This document shows positions 4,001-37,403 of a stretch of DNA of 64,000 nucleotides, in pieces. The position numbers were made by a program, and so were the translations under genes. This stretch comes from a virus: IMG/VR virus record IMGVR_UViG_3300027365_000009, positions 64,001 to 128,000 of that record; one strand, written 5' to 3'. The notes beneath the pieces are model-generated. The model had not been told where the DNA came from. It ran no database searches and saw only the letters and a program-made list of their open reading frames with translations. Within the stretch, counting starts at the first letter, position 1. The number at the start of each line of letters is the position of its first letter.

Positions 4001-4903
4001 CCACTCAGTACCTTCCCATACGTACATCATGTAATCGATGATGTAAGCATCACCCGGGGCGTTGTTCTGCATCGGCAGGAATGCCGTGTCTTCAAAACTA
4101 CCCAGGATACGCAGGCCGTTACCGGTACGCCCTTGCAGGGAGGCGAGCCACTCTTCCTCGGTACCAATGAACCCATCAGCGACGGCGATTTCATACGCGG
4201 ACATCCCGCGCTCACCACCAAGGGTATCCAGCCACTCCTGACGGGTGCCGGTGAACCCTTCTTCCACGGCAATCTCGTAGGCGTTCTCGCCTTTGAGCGA
4301 TGCCAACCATTCTGTTTCGGTTCCGGTAAACCCGTCATCGACCGCCACCTCAAAGGCGCTCTTGCCGGTCTCTCCTACCAGGGAGTCCAGGAACTCCTGC
4401 TGGGTACCCACAAAACCTTCAGAGACCGCGAGGTCATACACGGACATCCCGGTCTCGCCCTGAGGACCAACCAGGGATGCCAGGAACTCAGCTTCAGTAC
4501 CCACAAAGCCGTTTTGTTGGGCGAGCTCATAGGCGGAATAACCACGGGGACCTTGGTCACCGGTATCACCTTTCACGCCCTGGATACCTTGGTCGCCTTG
4601 CGGTCCAATCAGGTGGTCAAGCCATTCCTGTTCGGTACCGGTGAATCCGTTTTCCACGGCCACGTTGTAGGCAGACCAGCCACGGGGGCCTTCAGGACCC
4701 ACAAGGGTGTCCAGCCACTCTTGGCGTGTGCCTTCAAAACCTTGATCGACAGCCACCTCATAGGCATCTTTACCGATCAGCTCGCGCACATAAGCGCTGA
4801 GGTTCTCAAATCCGCCACCAAACGAAGGACGGATAACTTCCAACATCTCAGTGCCGGATAAACCACCCGCCGCTTCTAATTGAGAAATCTTCCTGTTGGC
4901 CAC
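1010..4903 (-). CDS. Long tail fibre/whisker protein: ~25-aa repeats, collagen segments, knob domains, C-terminal tandem foldon-like repeats
   Basis: GTG start after GAGGAGG; dozens of G[KD]SAY[EQ]xAVxxGFxGTxxEWLxSLxG repeats; GPQGDQGIQG collagen; C-terminal EAPxDGQxYVRxxxxW repeats like the T4 fibritin foldon. Confidence 0.85.
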   Translation of the reverse strand: MANRKISQLEAAGGLSGTEMLEVIRPSFGGGFENLSAYVRELIGKDAYEVAVDQGFEGTRQEWLDTLVGPEGPRGWSAYNVAVENGFTGTEQEWLDHLIGPQGDQGIQGVKGDTGDQGPRGYSAYELAQQNGFVGTEAEFLASLVGPQGETGMSVYDLAVSEGFVGTQQEFLDSLVGETGKSAFEVAVDDGFTGTETEWLASLKGENAYEIAVEEGFTGTRQEWLDTLGGERGMSAYEIAVADGFIGTEEEWLASLQGRTGNGLRILGSFEDTAFLPMQNNAPGDAYIIDYMMYVWEGTEWEPVGQTGPDGKSAYVLAVEQGYEGTVQKWLADLEGDSAYQLALANGFAGSVSEWLDSLIGDSAYQVALSTGFVGTEQDFINSLKGGDAYEVAVADGYTGTRAEWLDSLVGPQGDQGIQGVQGPKGEPSAAIKVLGKVAAVGDLPASGNAPGDAYFIGENLYVWDDSQWLDVGPVVGPQGEQGIQGVQGPKGDDGDSAYHVAVNNGFQGTESDWLSTLEGDSVYSVAVQNGFVGTEQEFLDSLQGATGKSAFEHAQDQGFNGTETQWLQTLVGKSAYEVALSTGFSGTEQEWLDTLVGPQGPAGPMGTGLNITGVVATEADLPTDSADGEAYVAGSDLYLRLAGEWVNAGPLAGDSAFQVALDQGFVGTQQEWLDSLVGASAYEQAVENGFSGSVGQWLESLKGGDAFDVAVADGFTGTRSEWLASLVGDDAYQVAVANGFTGTAGEWLESLVGPQGPQGPQGDMGDPGPSLNIVDSVATTGELPTSGTVGEGYLVGEDLYAWVNDQWKNLGTVKGPQGDQGIQGDTGPSAYDAAVSGGFTGTEAEWLESLEGPSAYEVAVEQGFSGTETEWLDSLKGGDAYAVALDNGFVGTEQEFLDSLKGDKGDSNYDIAVAGGFVGTEAEWLESIKGAQGDSAYAIAVAEGFSGTKAEWLDTLVGPRGYSAYEVAVNEGFVGTRQEWLDSLIGFQGKSAYQVAVDAGFTGTEQEWLDSLQGPQGADALGIIIEGELASQADLPTAGSFQGEAYQVGDHIFLWVASAGSWLDMGDIRGPSAYEVYLEQYPDYVGTEIDWLDSLNGNRWIARDYDPDAVTGDIGDFAINSVTNQWFQKVSDTTWSAMGYLGGGTVYEAPQDGQQYVRLNAEWAVLTAEVEEAPEDNQAYVRKNGLWEVQTAEVEEAPVDGQQYVRIDGAWAILTAEVEEVPDTDPTLTYVRKGDGTWVPLGFADATADMQPNTTVVDKAVTPVALETFLLDQLGVYYDEAAGDWVNDEGTIAPAV

Positions 4904-4971: not shown

Positions 4972-5826
4972 TTACGCAACCGACTGACTATATTTATCAA
5001 ACGCTCTGGCCAACCGGGTGTCATAGGGGGGATTATGCTTCGCGTAAGCGGGTCCATTGTAGATTCGTGCAAAACGGGCCCAGTTGCGTTCTTTCAGCGC
5101 TTCGTGTAATCGCTGGTCGGCCCGAATGAATTTCACAAAGGCCATCAAATGGTGGCGTTCGCTTTCTTTCATTAAGCCGACGAACTGATTAACACTTTGG
5201 TAACCTAATTGTTCCCAGTGAAAGCCCATGATTTGGAACAGTCCCCACGAGGCCGACTCGAGGCCACTTTCCTCATGGAGTTGGCATGCAGCGTTTAGCC
5301 GTTGGTGTTCCGCCACGCCCCCGCGATACCCACCGGTTTTGGTGTTGACGATGTTCGGGTATTGATCGACATATGGGCGGGGGTCAATTCCATGGTGCTT
5401 CATGCGCCGAAACATGATGTGTCGTTCATAGAGGATCGTCGGTTTGTCCTCAGTGAAAAACCCACTCCCCCGAGACTCGACGGCGTTGACAGCCATCACG
5501 GAAGCCACCGGGACATCCAACATGACCGCGGCATCTTGGATATCGTCTTGAGATAGGACTTTCGGATCTTTCGGATGGTTATCCAATCGCCATTGGGTTT
5601 TCGGGCCCACCCGACCATCCTGGACCAACCCAACGTCTTTTTGGAACTGACGGATAACCCGTTCGGTACCGGGACCAAACGCGCCGTCGATGGTGATGTC
5701 ATATCCCGCTTCTTTCAGCTGTCGTTGGATGGATTCAACCTGGTGGCCCGAATCTCCCCGCTCCAGCATGATGTCTTGTTCTGGGATAAAATCCACGTCA
5801 TCAAACCAGTGTTGTGTTTCGCTCAT
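4972..5826 (-). CDS. Modular endolysin: N-terminal peptidoglycan-binding domain + N-acetylmuramidase (DUF3380-type)
   Basis: DGAFGPGTERVIRQFQ..GLVQDGRVGPKT (PG_binding_1); AVNAVESRGSGF, ILYERHIM, SASWGLFQIMGFH, FARIYNGPAY motifs. Confidence 0.9.
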   Translation of the reverse strand: MSETQHWFDDVDFIPEQDIMLERGDSGHQVESIQRQLKEAGYDITIDGAFGPGTERVIRQFQKDVGLVQDGRVGPKTQWRLDNHPKDPKVLSQDDIQDAAVMLDVPVASVMAVNAVESRGSGFFTEDKPTILYERHIMFRRMKHHGIDPRPYVDQYPNIVNTKTGGYRGGVAEHQRLNAACQLHEESGLESASWGLFQIMGFHWEQLGYQSVNQFVGLMKESERHHLMAFVKFIRADQRLHEALKERNWARFARIYNGPAYAKHNPPYDTRLARAFDKYSQSVA

Positions 5827-5829
5827 CTA

Positions 5830-6045
5830 TTACCTCCGGCTGTCAAAACAGTGTTGTAACTTGGTTAAGGTCAGGGCATCGACTCGACCATGGTAAGGCA
5901 GGCGCAGATCGCGCTGGAAGGCCCTCACACCGCGAATCGTACGTTCATCAGGGGTACAGGCCATGGTGCCTTGAAAATAGCCCAGGCGACGTAACATGAA
6001 CTGGATATCGTAACACCGGGAGTGTAAGTAGTCAGTCGTCGCCAT
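5830..6045 (-). CDS. Stand-alone peptidoglycan-binding domain protein
   Basis: MATTDY...IQFMLRRLGY...RTIRGVRAFQRDLRLPYHGRVDALT matches the PG_binding_1 pattern; GGAG RBS before ATG 6045. Confidence 0.7.
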   Translation of the reverse strand: MATTDYLHSRCYDIQFMLRRLGYFQGTMACTPDERTIRGVRAFQRDLRLPYHGRVDALTLTKLQHCFDSRR

Positions 6046-11098: not shown

Positions 11099-11863
11099 TC
11101 ACCATCCCAAGTACGCCGGGGTCGACGCTTTTTCGGTGGTCTTCTCCCACCCTAAATCACGGGCCAGAGTTTCATAATCCACTTGAGCCGATTCCATCCC
11201 TGATGCCATCTGAGCCTTTTGTTCTTCGGCCAGGCCCCACAGCATGGTTGGGGTGAGTTCGACCTCTGAGAAGGACTCTAACGCCGGAGAGTAATACTTA
11301 TTGGCGTTATAGATACCGCCTTCGTTGACAAAGTCCCAGGTCACGATATCGCGGGTGTACTTTACGCCGCGCATCATGTCATCCACGGTGAGACTGCGCA
11401 CTGAGAAGTAGACGTTCTCGTGAGGATTATCTAACGCGTCCTTCAGGACTTGGCCATAAGGACCCGAGGGACGTACCTCACCGATGACCACAGTGACAGG
11501 ACGCCCTTTATCGTCCTTCTGGCCCGGTTCAAGACGCAGGTTACGGATATGGAACGCCACCCGATCGGAATCGATCTGGCGAATCCGTCCAATAAAGGCT
11601 TGGTCAGATTGCCCTGCCTGTTTCTCCGGGTGTTTGTACTCACCGCGCAGTACCCCCTTCTCCAACATCCGTATCAGGGGTGAGCCCTGTTGGAAGAACG
11701 GTACTGCCGATTGCAGGTCATAGAACATCCCGGCGCTGTTATACGCCCCATAGGCGCCTAACACGACAGTGTAATACCCATCCTCATCAGGGGTCAGTAC
11801 CCCTTTCTTTTGGGTGCCCATGAGCATGGTACAGCCCATACTCACACTACGTTTCGGTTGCAT
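11099..11863 (-). CDS. Prohead (head maturation) serine protease, phiKZ gp175-like
   Basis: LRGEYKHP (catalytic His), FSVRSLT (catalytic Ser), IVTWDFVNEGG; C-terminal ALE/GME autocleavage-type sites. Confidence 0.85.
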   Translation of the reverse strand: MQPKRSVSMGCTMLMGTQKKGVLTPDEDGYYTVVLGAYGAYNSAGMFYDLQSAVPFFQQGSPLIRMLEKGVLRGEYKHPEKQAGQSDQAFIGRIRQIDSDRVAFHIRNLRLEPGQKDDKGRPVTVVIGEVRPSGPYGQVLKDALDNPHENVYFSVRSLTVDDMMRGVKYTRDIVTWDFVNEGGIYNANKYYSPALESFSEVELTPTMLWGLAEEQKAQMASGMESAQVDYETLARDLGWEKTTEKASTPAYLGW

Positions 11864-33459: not shown

Positions 33460-33565
33460 ACGTCCTCTTCTTGGTTTAACAAAAAAAAAACGTGTCCGTC
33501 ACATAACATTGTTAATCTTCACGGGCCTCCGCAATATAATGACACACACCAAAAGGAGGTACCCA

Positions 33566-33967
33566 ATGTCAACTCGCACGTTACGTTCCCATATCGTCAA
33601 TCCCGCTAACGATAAGATCACGATCAACGTCACCGACGAGCCCGGAGATGGTGGTGCCAACCATCGTTATGAGATTAGCGGTTTCAATATCGAATCCAAC
33701 GCCTCAAAAGAAGACCATGACGGGAACCGAAATCAGGTGAACCTCCTGTTCCAAAATGGTCCGATTCCTGAAAAGGGTGTCAATGGTATCACCCATGAGG
33801 TGTTGCTCGCTATCTTGATTGACCGCCTCCAAGGGTTCCAGGACGGTCCCTTCCGCTGCCGTGAAAATGCCCTGGCCCTCACCAAACTGGAAGAGGCTCA
33901 GATGTGGTTGCAGAAGCGCACACGTGATCGGATGTCAAGAGGGGTCGAGGGGACCCATGAGCAGTAA
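33566..33967 (+). CDS. tad1: Thoeris anti-defence 1 (Tad1)-family nucleotide-signal sponge
   Basis: FQNGPIPEKGVNGITHE..LIDRLQGFQ..FRCRENALALTKLEEAQMWLQKRTRDRMSRGVEGT; AGGAGG RBS before ATG 33566. Confidence 0.85.
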   Translation: MSTRTLRSHIVNPANDKITINVTDEPGDGGANHRYEISGFNIESNASKEDHDGNRNQVNLLFQNGPIPEKGVNGITHEVLLAILIDRLQGFQDGPFRCRENALALTKLEEAQMWLQKRTRDRMSRGVEGTHEQ

Positions 33968-34262
33968 CCCCGTTAGTGACCATGATATCAACGGGATGCC
34001 CATACGGCATCTCTATGTGCGGTATCTGATGGCCAGCTACTTGTACTATGTGTGTGATGAAGCCTCACCTTGGTCGGATTACGAATACGACCTCGCCTGC
34101 CGGCGTTTACACACTGAGTGGGAAAGCTTCGATCATCCCCATAAGTACCTATTACGTAATCCCGATAGTCTCTTAGCGGGGACAGGGTTTGATATCATCA
34201 ACTACCCCAGCATTGTCCGGGTCTGTTCCTGGTCATGGAAAGAGGGTGAGTTCAACAGATAG
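33957..34262 (+). CDS. Stand-alone NAD+-dependent DNA ligase domain Ia (Nlig-Ia)-like protein
   Basis: YLMASYLYYVCDEASPWSDYEYDLACRRL matches the LigA Ia YYxxDxPxxSDxEYD motif; overlaps the tad1 end. Confidence 0.7.
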   Translation: MSSNPVSDHDINGMPIRHLYVRYLMASYLYYVCDEASPWSDYEYDLACRRLHTEWESFDHPHKYLLRNPDSLLAGTGFDIINYPSIVRVCSWSWKEGEFNR

Positions 34263-34273
34263 GAGTAGCAACA

Positions 34274-34507
34274 ATGCGTTTTCAAACCGCGTATGTGTGG
34301 ATGAAGCATGGTAAGCGGATGCGTGTGCCAGGCTTCAAGGGGTATTGGCGTTTCAATAAAGAAACCGAAACTATTGAGATTGTCACGAAAGACAATGTTG
34401 TCATGGATATCCGTGACACTAAAGACGTTGATTTCACGATGTCGTTCATTAACTCCGACGAATGGGAGTTCTACGAAGGACATAATGACCCGCGTCAGAA
34501 CACATAA
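34274..34507 (+). CDS. Tad2/DUF2829-like small protein
   Basis: MxFxxAxxxMKxGKxxRxPxxxGYW...MDIRDT...INSDEWE resembles the Tad2-family N-terminus and terminal DW/EW motif. Confidence 0.6.
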   Translation: MRFQTAYVWMKHGKRMRVPGFKGYWRFNKETETIEIVTKDNVVMDIRDTKDVDFTMSFINSDEWEFYEGHNDPRQNT

Positions 34508-34512
34508 CTCCA

Positions 34513-34532
34513 AGGGCTCCTGCGGGAGCCCT
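34513..34532. terminator. Hairpin closing the tad operon
   Basis: AGGGCTCC-tgcg-GGAGCCCT followed by TATGCCG. Confidence 0.55.
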
Positions 34533-34551
34533 ACTATGCCGTCCCACTGTA

Positions 34552-34569
34552 TTTAACATCTATATCACT
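34552..34569 (+). promoter_or_regulatory. Putative early promoter
   Basis: TTTAACATCTATATCACT. Confidence 0.65.
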
Positions 34570-34603: not shown

Positions 34604-35107
34604 ATGAATACCAATGCTTCGTTAATCACACTAAGTAACCGCATCCCCGACACTGACGTCACTGCGTTTATCGCAGCCCTTGAAAACAAAGAGGGCCCAT
34701 ACTTCCCCAAAACCGTCGTATTCGATGATCCAGTATCACATTACCAAGTATATTGTGGGAATGTCGAAAAGGGGAGTCGTCACTGGTATTTGGATTTCAC
34801 CAGCATTGCCCTCAAAGAAGGGAAAATCGACGCGCGTGAGGTTTTGCGCGTATACAATGACCTGGCGCTGAAAGGCGGGGATCTCCTCTACGCAGGCGAT
34901 ACCAGTCACTTTATCTTGGACATAGCGCGACGCATTACTAACGGTCCGCGGTTCTACCGTCAGGACGGCATTACCGTTTATGGCATTGTCCGTGAGTTCT
35001 GCCATCGGATGGAAGACCTCAACCATCACCTAGTGGAGATAGGTCCCGTCAATAACCCCAACCACCCTTACGTTATCAAGGTCGTCAGCAAGACCAATCG
35101 GGATTAG
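34604..35107 (+). CDS. Hypothetical protein
   Basis: 167-aa ORF with AAGGA RBS downstream of the promoter motif. Confidence 0.65.
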   Translation: MNTNASLITLSNRIPDTDVTAFIAALENKEGPYFPKTVVFDDPVSHYQVYCGNVEKGSRHWYLDFTSIALKEGKIDAREVLRVYNDLALKGGDLLYAGDTSHFILDIARRITNGPRFYRQDGITVYGIVREFCHRMEDLNHHLVEIGPVNNPNHPYVIKVVSKTNRD

Positions 35108-35120
35108 TCATCCCAACGAG

Positions 35121-35138
35121 TTTAACACCTATATCACT
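35121..35138 (+). promoter_or_regulatory. Putative early promoter
   Basis: TTTAACACCTATATCACT. Confidence 0.65.
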
Positions 35139-35169
35139 ACCATGCATCCACTGGAAAAGGAACCCCGTC

Positions 35170-35277
35170 GTGAAACAATTTCTCAAAGCCGTCGCCATCG
35201 GTACCATCACTGGCGTCGCCATCACGCTGACCATGGAAGAAATCCATAAGTGGCGCCAGCGTAACGCACGTCACTGA
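35170..35277 (+). CDS. Small membrane peptide (35 aa)
   Basis: AAGGA RBS, GTG start, MKQFLKAVAIGTITGVAITLTMEEIHKWRQRNARH. Confidence 0.5.
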   Translation: MKQFLKAVAIGTITGVAITLTMEEIHKWRQRNARH

Positions 35278-35330
35278 CCCCCATCAAGCCTTAGAATAAA
35301 CCGAAACACAATCACAGGACACGCAACACC

Positions 35331-35468
35331 ATGGACATCAATACCCTGATCGATCTTGTCGAAGCTCACGATGACCTCTCCGCTTCCCTGTACGAAGAGC
35401 AGTTTCGGCACGTCGATCCCGAGCAAGTTTCCCTCTCCACCAACGACAAACTCGTTGATGTGGAATAA
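35331..35468 (+). CDS. Small acidic protein (45 aa)
   Basis: CAGGA RBS; MDINTLIDLVEAHDDLSASLYEEQF...DVE*. Confidence 0.5.
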   Translation: MDINTLIDLVEAHDDLSASLYEEQFRHVDPEQVSLSTNDKLVDVE

Positions 35469-35549
35469 CCATGGCGGGGAAACTACCCGCCAGCACCATC
35501 CGATGAGGGGTAATGCCCTCACCACTGACCCAGAGAAGAGAGAACTGTA

Positions 35550-35963
35550 ATGAGCGAACTCAAGTCCCGCAAGTACGCCGACAAACATGGCCTGGCTGAC
35601 AAGCTGAAGGTGGACGCCAAAACTGGCGAGATCACCCCCAGTGATGATTACTACGAGGCCACACTCGAGGGAACGGGTGTGACCCTGGACCAACTCAAGA
35701 AGGTCCAGAATAACAATGCCGAGCTACTTTCATCCACCACCCTGGTGGCTGGGGAAATGGCTGCCGAACATTTCAAGGAACACCCCGAGACGAACGAGCT
35801 GTCGCTGCGCTATTCCGCTGGACGCGATACCTATGCGATGAACTTCTCCCGCGCGGAAGACGCCAAGCCAGTCCGGCATGAGATCAGCATCTATGGCGCT
35901 GAAGACAAAGGTGAGCTCAAGAAGGTGAAAAAGCTCGTCAAGGGTCTCTTTGACGAGATCTGA
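35550..35963 (+). CDS. Hypothetical protein
   Basis: 137-aa ORF with strongly biased codon use, followed by a terminator. Confidence 0.75.
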   Translation: MSELKSRKYADKHGLADKLKVDAKTGEITPSDDYYEATLEGTGVTLDQLKKVQNNNAELLSSTTLVAGEMAAEHFKEHPETNELSLRYSAGRDTYAMNFSRAEDAKPVRHEISIYGAEDKGELKKVKKLVKGLFDEI

Positions 35964-36736: not shown

Positions 36737-36984
36737 ACCCCGACCTGTATTTACTACAACAGAACTCTAAGGGATTCTGGCAACACCCACGGACCGAGCG
36801 GGTCTATCAAGTGCTCACGGTCGCCAACAAACACAGCACCCGACCTGACGAGTTTCCGATAACTGTGGTTTATCAAGATATCGTTGATGAACGTATCTGG
36901 TCCCTTCCCATCAAGTGTTTTGTCGATAAGTTCGACCCTTGGCAACCACATACCCCCGAGACCGCTCCAGGAGGCCGTCAGTGA
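36733..36984 (+). CDS. DUF1653-like small protein
   Basis: WQH..YQVLTVAN..TVVYQ...IWSLP...FVDKF pattern. Confidence 0.55.
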   Translation: MNPDLYLLQQNSKGFWQHPRTERVYQVLTVANKHSTRPDEFPITVVYQDIVDERIWSLPIKCFVDKFDPWQPHTPETAPGGRQ

Positions 36985-37403
36985 GCTTTTCACCCACTCC
37001 CTGTGACAAGCACCCGGGGTTTTATGAAATACCCGGATATCGCCGCTACGGAGCAAATAGAAAGGGGGAGATCCTCTTTAAGGATACGGGTCATGTGACT
37101 GCTGGTGGAAATGCCGGTCGTTACCTTAAGGTTGCGGTTTTCCGAGACGGAGATAGTGAGAGAACGCTACAGTATGTCCACGATCTCATCTGTCGGGCGT
37201 TTCGTGGGAAACCCAAACCTGGTCAGGTTGTATTGCATGCCGATGATGATCGCCGCAATAATCGCCCAAGTAACCTGGCATGGGGGACGCAGTCCTCTAA
37301 CATTAAGGCGACCTATGATAATGGTTTGAGAAAGCCCACCACCGGACCACGCCCGAGTAAGGAAGAGTATCGCCACTCTCCTTTCGTGCGACCTTGTCTA
37401 TAA
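36981..37403 (+). CDS. Free-standing HNH endonuclease (NUMOD4-like N-terminus)
   Basis: IPGYRRYGANRKGEI...YVHDLICRAF...VLHADDDRRNNRPSNLAWGTQSSN; GGAGG RBS before GTG. Confidence 0.82.
   Translation: MSFSPTPCDKHPGFYEIPGYRRYGANRKGEILFKDTGHVTAGGNAGRYLKVAVFRDGDSERTLQYVHDLICRAFRGKPKPGQVVLHADDDRRNNRPSNLAWGTQSSNIKATYDNGLRKPTTGPRPSKEEYRHSPFVRPCL

Follow-up and report, generated by a model that had tools for sequence, protein, structure and literature searches.

Results and Discussion

A sponge gene pair with an inserted ligase domain

In the 64,000-nucleotide (nt) stretch of viral DNA analysed here (hereafter the window), three small plus-strand genes and a terminal hairpin occupy positions 33566-34532, and a gene coding for a stand-alone domain Ia of LigA, the DNA ligase dependent on nicotinamide adenine dinucleotide (NAD+), lies between genes for a Tad1-family protein and for a divergent protein with a predicted Tad2 fold. 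Sponges of the Tad1 and Tad2 families blunt TIR/cGAS signalling. The conserved unit is the pair made up of the Tad1 and Tad2-fold genes, and the ligase-domain (Nlig-Ia) gene has been inserted exactly between them in this lineage alone, because relatives have the two members of the pair directly adjacent to each other. We regard the cassette as a real sponge islet carrying an unusual passenger from an already described family, and not yet as a new kind of system. Our preferred, still tentative explanation is that a jumbo phage expresses these accessory genes together as one cassette, in which the middle protein would act as a buffer or sensor of NAD+ or nicotinamide mononucleotide (NMN) and aid the phage against NAD+-consuming immunity, and would not act as a sponge for glycocyclic ADP-ribose (gcADPR). 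The window belongs to a 149,876-bp IMG/VR virus record with an estimated completeness of 51%, from which a jumbo phage genome of roughly 300 kb can be deduced; searches of the phage's own record refer to these approximately 150 kb.

The first-pass annotation of this DNA had described three tightly coupled small genes ending at a single hairpin, and this layout holds. Gene 1 (33566-33967, 133 amino acids (aa), P0002) is preceded by a Shine-Dalgarno sequence, AGGAGG, which can be read at 33554-33559, 6 nt 5′ of the ATG at 33566. The ATG of gene 2 (33957-34262, 101 aa, P0003) lies 11 nt inside the 3′ end of gene 1 (GGGACCCATGAGCAGTAA), and gene 3 (34274-34507, 77 aa, P0001) starts 11 nt past the TAG of gene 2, with GGAG in the spacer; the three genes are translationally coupled. 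Five nt beyond the stop codon of gene 3, RNA folding reveals an 8-bp GC-rich stem with a UGCG loop (AGGGCUCC-UGCG-GGAGCCCU, 34513-34532), and the surrounding 61 nt (34500-34560) have a fold energy of -18 kcal/mol (z = -2.9). Its role as a terminator is unproven, because it has no U tract and a terminator scan called nothing at this hairpin. All three open reading frames (ORFs) are evidently real genes and not chance ORFs, because each has many homologues. Megablast of the region yielded no match among GenBank phages, and NCBIfam had nothing for any cassette or flanking protein. All three products are acidic, and net charge and isoelectric point do not discriminate among them.

The Tad1 and Tad2-fold genes

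The identification of gene 1 as a clear Tad1, made in the first-pass annotation, is upheld: its product is clearly a Tad1-family protein and a putative sponge. It scores 32 bits against the Pfam model PF24729 (Acb2_Tad1_hairpin; cut-off 27), matches phrog_2428 with an expect value (E) of 1.6e-36, and can be aligned over its C-terminal 72 residues with the solved Tad1 8kbb (E 3e-24) and over residues 19-131 with other Tad1 structures (7uav, E 2.3e-18; 7uav, 8kbe and 8kbg all at about 2-3e-18). Residues 49-133 are 57.6% identical to the annotated Tad1 of Bacillus phage SBSphiJ7. Tad1-like domains also exist as C-terminal modules in larger phage proteins, because residues 124-227 of gp184 (PDB 8y6v chain I, 230 aa) match gene 1 residues 27-131 with E 1.1e-18, and because phrog_22140 and phrog_23843 represent similar longer forms.

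Gene 3 had been called Tad2-like, which proves correct with regard to the fold, but not with regard to the Pfam family. It has no Pfam match at E<=1, the Tad2 model PF11195 included, and a phmmer search against PDB sequences found neither Tad2 nor any other relatives. However, the AlphaFold2 (AF2) model built from a 21-sequence alignment (predicted local distance difference test, pLDDT, 92.9) is predicted to adopt the Tad2 fold: in Foldseek, ranks 1-22 are all occupied by Tad2-family chains (SPO1 Tad2, ModTad2, SptTad2, AcrIIA7 and HgmTad2), with template modelling (TM) scores of 0.65-0.67 and a probability of 1.00. VIA-align superposes the model on all ten Tad2-family entries with Z 7.7-8.7 and a root-mean-square deviation (rmsd) of 1.8-2.1 Å over 61-63 of the 77 residues, the next unrelated chain being at Z 3.6, and language-model features (Atlas) match clusters in which 23% of the members carry PF11195. 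Gene 3 has a family of its own, with at least 21 clusters, often adjoining Tad1. One homologue, on a 217-kb stromatolite-metagenome contig (L091:4699-5190), lies two genes upstream of a protein with a NADAR domain (PF08719), another NAD/ADP-ribose-related module. With this divergent Tad2-fold family, which is missed by Pfam and recurs next to Tad1 in jumbo phages, more sponge genes become recognisable.

Relatives were found on contigs of 214-241 kb, and the arrangement could be compared with two syntenic relatives, a 50-kb Logan contig (L005) and a 241-kb TARA contig (L090). Both share the order 2,400-aa protein, p672, p80, Tad1, gene 3, variable genes, p137, thymidylate kinase and p83 (with an HNH gene also in L005), with protein identities of 33-72% to this phage. 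In both, the gene-3 homologue directly follows Tad1, with 11 nt between the called genes, and no Nlig-Ia is present at the Tad1/gene-3 locus. Tad1 also adjoins gene 3 in L006, where the surroundings are unrelated and the pair has a tail-fibre-like gene at its side, and in the 220-kb viral contig L098, and gene-3 homologues occur without Tad1 at other loci (L087-L089, L091, L097 and L099-L102). Nlig-Ia was found in none of the 13 close Tad1 loci and in none of the 11 further gene-3 loci, seven of which are without Tad1, and the Tad1/Nlig-Ia/gene 3 trio is unique among the approximately 100 loci examined. The insertion of gene 2 into this conserved pair is a genuine new contextual hint of counter-defence use. 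Two of the homologues are longer: the L006 Tad1 (5406-5987) reaches 193 aa, with some 60 additional residues at its C terminus, and the L090 gene-3 homologue (4001-4411, 136 aa) as called has some 60 additional residues at its N terminus. Extra domains or wrongly called start codons may account for these additions.

From gene 3 to p137, the DNA varies from one relative to another, coding for a 167-aa protein in the window (34604-35963), for proteins of 287, 204 and 179 aa in L005 (6348-8423), and for a 213-aa protein in L090 (4515-5335). None of these variable genes has a Pfam, PHROG or NCBIfam name. The stretch looks like an accessory-gene hotspot, and its genes are further anti-defence candidates.

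The Nlig-Ia domain and its predicted ligand site

The middle gene had been described as encoding only the Ia subdomain of the ligase, with no adenylation domain, and this is confirmed: the 101-aa product scores 34.5 bits against the Pfam model PF22745 (Nlig-Ia; cut-off 27), contains the motif quoted in support of the assignment (YLYYVCDEASPWSDYEYD), and matches phrog_19233 with E 1.2e-17; those of its relatives that were tested against PF22745 score 28.6-49.1 bits. An exhaustive HMMER search with gene 2 yielded 587 cluster representatives at E<=1e-3, none more than 62% identical to it; the best 150 of the 587 are almost all 72-170 aa long, and none of these 150 is a full-length ligase. A phmmer search found no relatives of gene 2 among PDB sequences; an 80-sequence profile of the family matched only LigA below E 0.5 (3jsl, E 0.005), with the family pattern SYLYY...SD.EYD..C..L......HPHK set against S. 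aureus LigA in an alignment ending ...EHPEYK. The similarity reaches beyond domain Ia into a linker resembling HP...SPTQxVG (HPHK...AGTG in gene 2). The AF2 model (pLDDT 92.3) consists of four helices, and its residues 13-84 superpose on residues ~12-77 of LigA in eleven LigA entries, which take ranks 1-11 (Z 3.7-4.7, 23-28% identity). We assign gene 2 to the solo Nlig-Ia proteins on the strength of its sequence, the predicted fold being consistent with the assignment, yet not decisive.

Solo Nlig-Ia is restricted to viruses: it was found at 86 viral loci and only once in 185,579 prokaryote species genomes, and this sole occurrence is in a T7-like element with the gene order methyltransferase, Nlig-Ia, unknown genes and RNA polymerase. 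In several relatives of Vibrio phage SSP002 or of similar phages the Nlig-Ia gene bears the label “putative NAD-dependent DNA ligase” or, in other cases, “terminase small subunit”, probably by mis-annotation. The domain was named by Iyer, Burroughs, Anantharaman & Aravind (Viruses 2022, PMC9503650), who reported it as a solo domain in 81 phages with conserved ligand residues and no ligases, and proposed that it acts as a sensor of NAD+ reporting NADase effectors, or as a shield of NAD+, making no mention of Tad1, Tad2 or sponges. The first-pass annotation had called the middle protein uncharacterised, which holds for its function, as we found no experimental study of solo Nlig-Ia in the open-access literature, but not for the family as such.

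In an alignment of 80 relatives, Y30 and D41 are invariant (80/80 each), Y31 is present in 78 and D45 in 76 of the 80, and position 44 is occupied by Y in 50 and by F in 30; gene 2 itself has Y30, Y31, D41, Y44 and D45. Other family-invariant positions are H60, H62/K63, A74-G-T-G77 and P84. Alignment of the profile with S. aureus LigA supplied the LigA register of the five residues, and we take Y30, Y31, D41, Y/F44 and D45 to correspond to Y22, H23, D32, Y35 and D36 of E. coli LigA. Those LigA residues are reportedly essential for the reaction with NAD+, and are said to contact NMN in the E. faecalis enzyme (Sriskanda & Shuman 2002; Gajiwala & Pinko 2004). The NMN-site residues of the gene 2 family are under strong purifying selection, and the conserved aromatic and acidic residues would fit a cationic nicotinamide riboside. 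Since this constellation of LigA contacts with NMN is kept, gene 2 most likely binds NAD+ or NMN, we infer. A prediction of the gene 2 homodimer with NAD scored 0.00 against a mark of 0.42, which carries no weight either way. The known Thoeris signals, which are gcADPR, histidine-ADP-ribose (His-ADPR) and N7-cyclic ADP-ribose (N7-cADPR), have lost nicotinamide. A sponge of the gcADPR type is less likely than an NAD+/NMN binder, because the conserved residues would hold the nicotinamide-ribose-phosphate half, which those signals are without.

Possible roles of gene 2

The explanation that we favour is as follows. The genes for the Tad1-family sponge and for the divergent Tad2-fold protein form a conserved pair, into which, in this lineage only, an Nlig-Ia gene has been inserted. 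Its product is incapable of ligation, because it has no adenylation domain, and its Tyr-Tyr...Asp..Tyr-Asp constellation would hold the nicotinamide-mononucleotide half of NAD+, as in LigA. Because it would be made together with two sponges, it plausibly helps the phage at the same time against the same class of NAD+-consuming immunity, which we infer from a single locus.

We surveyed the surroundings of solo Nlig-Ia genes in other phages. A scan of IMG/VR with a 14-sequence subset profile gave 80 further solo loci, falling into 26 clusters at 80% identity, and with three loci from GenBank phages (L001-L003) these make up 29 clusters, represented by 29 dereplicated records; the test of 5-kb neighbourhoods searched all ORFs. 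Several results of this survey and of the structure comparisons weigh against the favoured explanation. The proposed survey of tad and acb genes around solo Nlig-Ia came out essentially negative: within 5 kb of Nlig-Ia, homologues of Tad1 and of gene 3 are absent at all 80 viral and all three GenBank loci. The whole records are nearly sponge-free as well: the Tad1/Acb2 hairpin PF24729 is found in 0/29, Tad2 (PF11195) in 1/29 and Acb4 (PF13876) in 1/29 above cut-off (~56 kb off), none of them adjacent to Nlig-Ia. The recognisable neighbours elsewhere are replication, nucleotide-metabolism, terminase and early genes, and DUF7178. No partner for NAD+ salvage accompanies the domain either, as NAPRTase/NadV occurs in 0/29 records and is absent from the phage's own record. 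Structure prediction, also proposed earlier as a check, revealed the Tad2 fold of gene 3, but for gene 2 a wide VIA search of 48,161 representative chains placed LigA first by a small margin (Z 4.3, against 3.9 at rank 2), and Foldseek found no significant match to its model in the PDB. The link of gene 2 to anti-defence comes from one locus. Moreover, cellular NAD+ is millimolar, which makes stoichiometric shielding by a small protein hard to picture.

In the two genes on either side of Nlig-Ia at the 29 representative loci, Pfam recognises DUF7178 (four loci), T7-type terminase (two) and DnaB (two), and single cases of T7-like RNA polymerase, thymidylate synthase, DNA polymerases A and B, Toprim, deoxynucleoside monophosphate (dNMP) kinase, integrase, HNH, sigma factor and others; the 25 neighbour families listed include no sponge family. 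The closest homologues of gene 2 (58% and 49% identity) are located after a terminase-HNH pair or among unannotated genes. DUF7178 (PF23802, phrog_3842, function unknown) is the only recurrent partner, found directly upstream with overlapping stop and start codons in 4/29 clusters, which together cover about a quarter of the viral loci (L038:4421-5011, L043:4400-4990, L065:4260-4907 and L081:4077-4676). Its possible relationship to an archaeal 8-oxoguanine glycosylase was rejected, as the weak similarity (E 0.038) vanished in a profile search. Two fusions were seen. A 528-aa protein on a 235,833-bp IMG/VR contig (L056:4953-6539) has an N-terminal Nlig-Ia joined to a viral phosphoesterase of the DHH/DHHA1 type, which matches phrog_4771 with E 1.4e-11 and, in structure, a DHH cluster of the Atlas with TM 0.75. 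This DHH part may be RecJ-like, in line with a DNA-repair reading, or a cyclic-nucleotide phosphodiesterase, in line with signal degradation. In the 254-aa P0150, DUF488-N3a (PF22751) is fused to a C-terminal Nlig-Ia. Among the sampled Nlig-Ia phages, a canonical Tad2 (PF11195, 69.8 bits) is found in Vibrio phage SSP002 (JQ692107.1) alone; the two genes occupy 5334-5585 and 11377-11823 of its early region, with Tad2 about 6 kb upstream of Nlig-Ia and on the same strand.

The first-pass annotation had put the middle protein forward as a strong candidate for a sponge of NAD-derived signals, which would bind gcADPR, His-ADPR, N7-cADPR or another TIR product and make the operon a three-sponge cassette. 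Such sponging of an immune signal is possible, but we consider it quite unlikely: the candidacy came from this one locus, the predicted pocket suits NAD+/NMN, gripping a nicotinamide riboside that is absent from the known Thoeris signals, and neither adjacency nor fusion of Nlig-Ia to Tad1, Tad2, Acb4 or Acb2 occurs at any other sampled locus, DUF488-N3a being the sole Pfam partner among the ten longest forms. What speaks for it is the position of gene 2, placed precisely between two sponge-family genes and translationally coupled to both; its product is also small and virus-restricted, as known sponges are, and the L056 fusion partner belongs to an enzyme class that includes cyclic-nucleotide phosphodiesterases. 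In addition, the stacking and fusion of phage sponge genes has precedents, including Tad2-Acb4 and Sequestin fusions (bioRxiv 10.1101/2025.07.12.664507). A broader proposal, in which the Ia domain would be a new counter-defence class capturing a nicotinamide nucleotide or an NAD-derived signal, in a three-part cassette with Tad1 and the Tad2-fold protein directed against TIR/SIR2-type NAD+ immunity, seems to us similarly improbable; if true, a family that occurs in hundreds of phage lineages would gain its first function.

The main rival explanation connects gene 2 with the ligase of the host. Neither NAD- nor ATP-type ligase adenylation domains (PF01653, PF01068) were found in the phage's own record or in any of the 29 other Nlig-Ia records, which include seven with at least 90% completeness and three complete GenBank phages, and this reproduces the statement of Iyer et al. 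(PMC9503650). Phages devoid of any DNA ligase must use LigA, and a solo Ia domain may act on or with the host enzyme by docking on its adenylation domain and modulating adenylylation, so that sealing would be sustained under NAD+ scarcity or at high NMN, or host repair would be blocked. The frequent proximity of DnaB, Toprim, DNA polymerases A and B, thymidylate synthase and dNMP kinase agrees with such a role, as do the thymidylate kinase gene 1.8 kb downstream of the cassette in this window and the extension of similarity past domain Ia into the HPHK...AGTG linker. However, host LigA already has an Ia domain of its own, most phages are without a ligase anyway, which turns the 0/29 count into weak evidence, and the insertion between two sponge genes would be left unexplained. 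We judge this explanation unlikely.

Finally, the neighbourhood may be coincidental, with gene 2 representing a mobile “moron” that landed in a permissive intergenic site and has a function unrelated to Tad1 and Tad2, such as binding NAD-capped RNA or another ligand, or taking part in nucleic-acid metabolism with DUF7178 or DUF488 partners. The uniqueness of the trio would be expected on this account, as would the recurrence of DUF7178 and the existence of the DUF488-N3a fusion, and the variability of the region from gene 3 to p137 is that of a recombination-prone hotspot. Yet hotspots beside sponge genes typically gather further genes for counter-defence, the close coupling of translation with the genes on both sides is suggestive of co-regulation, and the NMN-site residues are strongly conserved, all of which makes a chance association rather improbable in our opinion.

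Overall, the Nlig-Ia family is mostly not tied to anti-defence genes, and the negative survey warns against taking the family as a whole for an obvious anti-defence family; host LigA or nucleotide metabolism may be what it relates to instead. Solo Nlig-Ia proteins are widespread in phages, and the locus described here is the first that we have found with one of them inside a sponge operon.

Other genes in the record

The thymidylate kinase (TMK) gene downstream of the cassette is followed by a small gene, the end of which is overlapped by an HNH_3 endonuclease gene (window positions 36939-37403); the latter is present in L005 (67% identity) and was not detected in L090. An Acb4-family sponge gene (PF13876, Phage_gp49_66, 74.5 bits) is located elsewhere in the record (G000:C1:17649-17879), about 46 kb upstream of the window start, and with it the phage carries at least three sponge-family genes, spread beyond one island. 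No NUDIX gene was found in the phage's own record.

Comparison with known systems

Comparison of gene 1 with Tad1 proteins of known structure (SBSphiJ7 Tad1 and CbTad1; PDB 8KBB, 7UAV/7UAW) shows that they have in common the C-terminal alignment and the Pfam hairpin domain above its cut-off, while the N-terminal 50 residues of gene 1 diverge. Characterised Tad1 proteins are hexamers binding gcADPR and cyclic oligonucleotides, and characterised Tad2 proteins are tetramers binding gcADPR, His-ADPR or cyclic dinucleotides. Gene 3 shares with solved Tad2 proteins (DUF2829/PF11195; SPO1 Tad2 8SMF/8SMG, ModTad2 9EIB, SptTad2 8WJD, HgmTad2/AcrIIA7 8KBJ/8KBI) its predicted fold and its character as a small phage protein, but is only 16-21% identical to them, is shorter, and escapes both the Pfam model and phmmer against the PDB. 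With domain Ia of LigA (3JSL, 1TAE/1TA8, 7K72, 6LW8), gene 2 has in common the predicted helical domain, the YY...D..YD motif and the HP motif that follows it; in contrast to LigA, it has no adenylation, OB, Zn, HhH or BRCT domains, and it adds a C-terminal helix (residues 85-96) and the family-specific invariant H60, H62/K63 and AGTG.

At the level of the cassette, the closest parallel is with the stacked and fused phage sponges (bioRxiv 10.1101/2025.07.12.664507), which resemble the two side-by-side sponge-family genes of this phage and its further Acb4-family gene, with the difference that the inserted gene 2 lies outside any validated sponge family. Gene 2 itself is most similar to the solo Nlig-Ia phage proteins (PF22745, e.g. 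ECBP2_0056; PMC9503650), with which it shares a length of about 100 aa, the Ia domain, the conserved NAD+-contact residues, the absence of a ligase and the restriction to viruses, and from which it is set apart by its seat between a Tad1 gene and a Tad2-fold gene.

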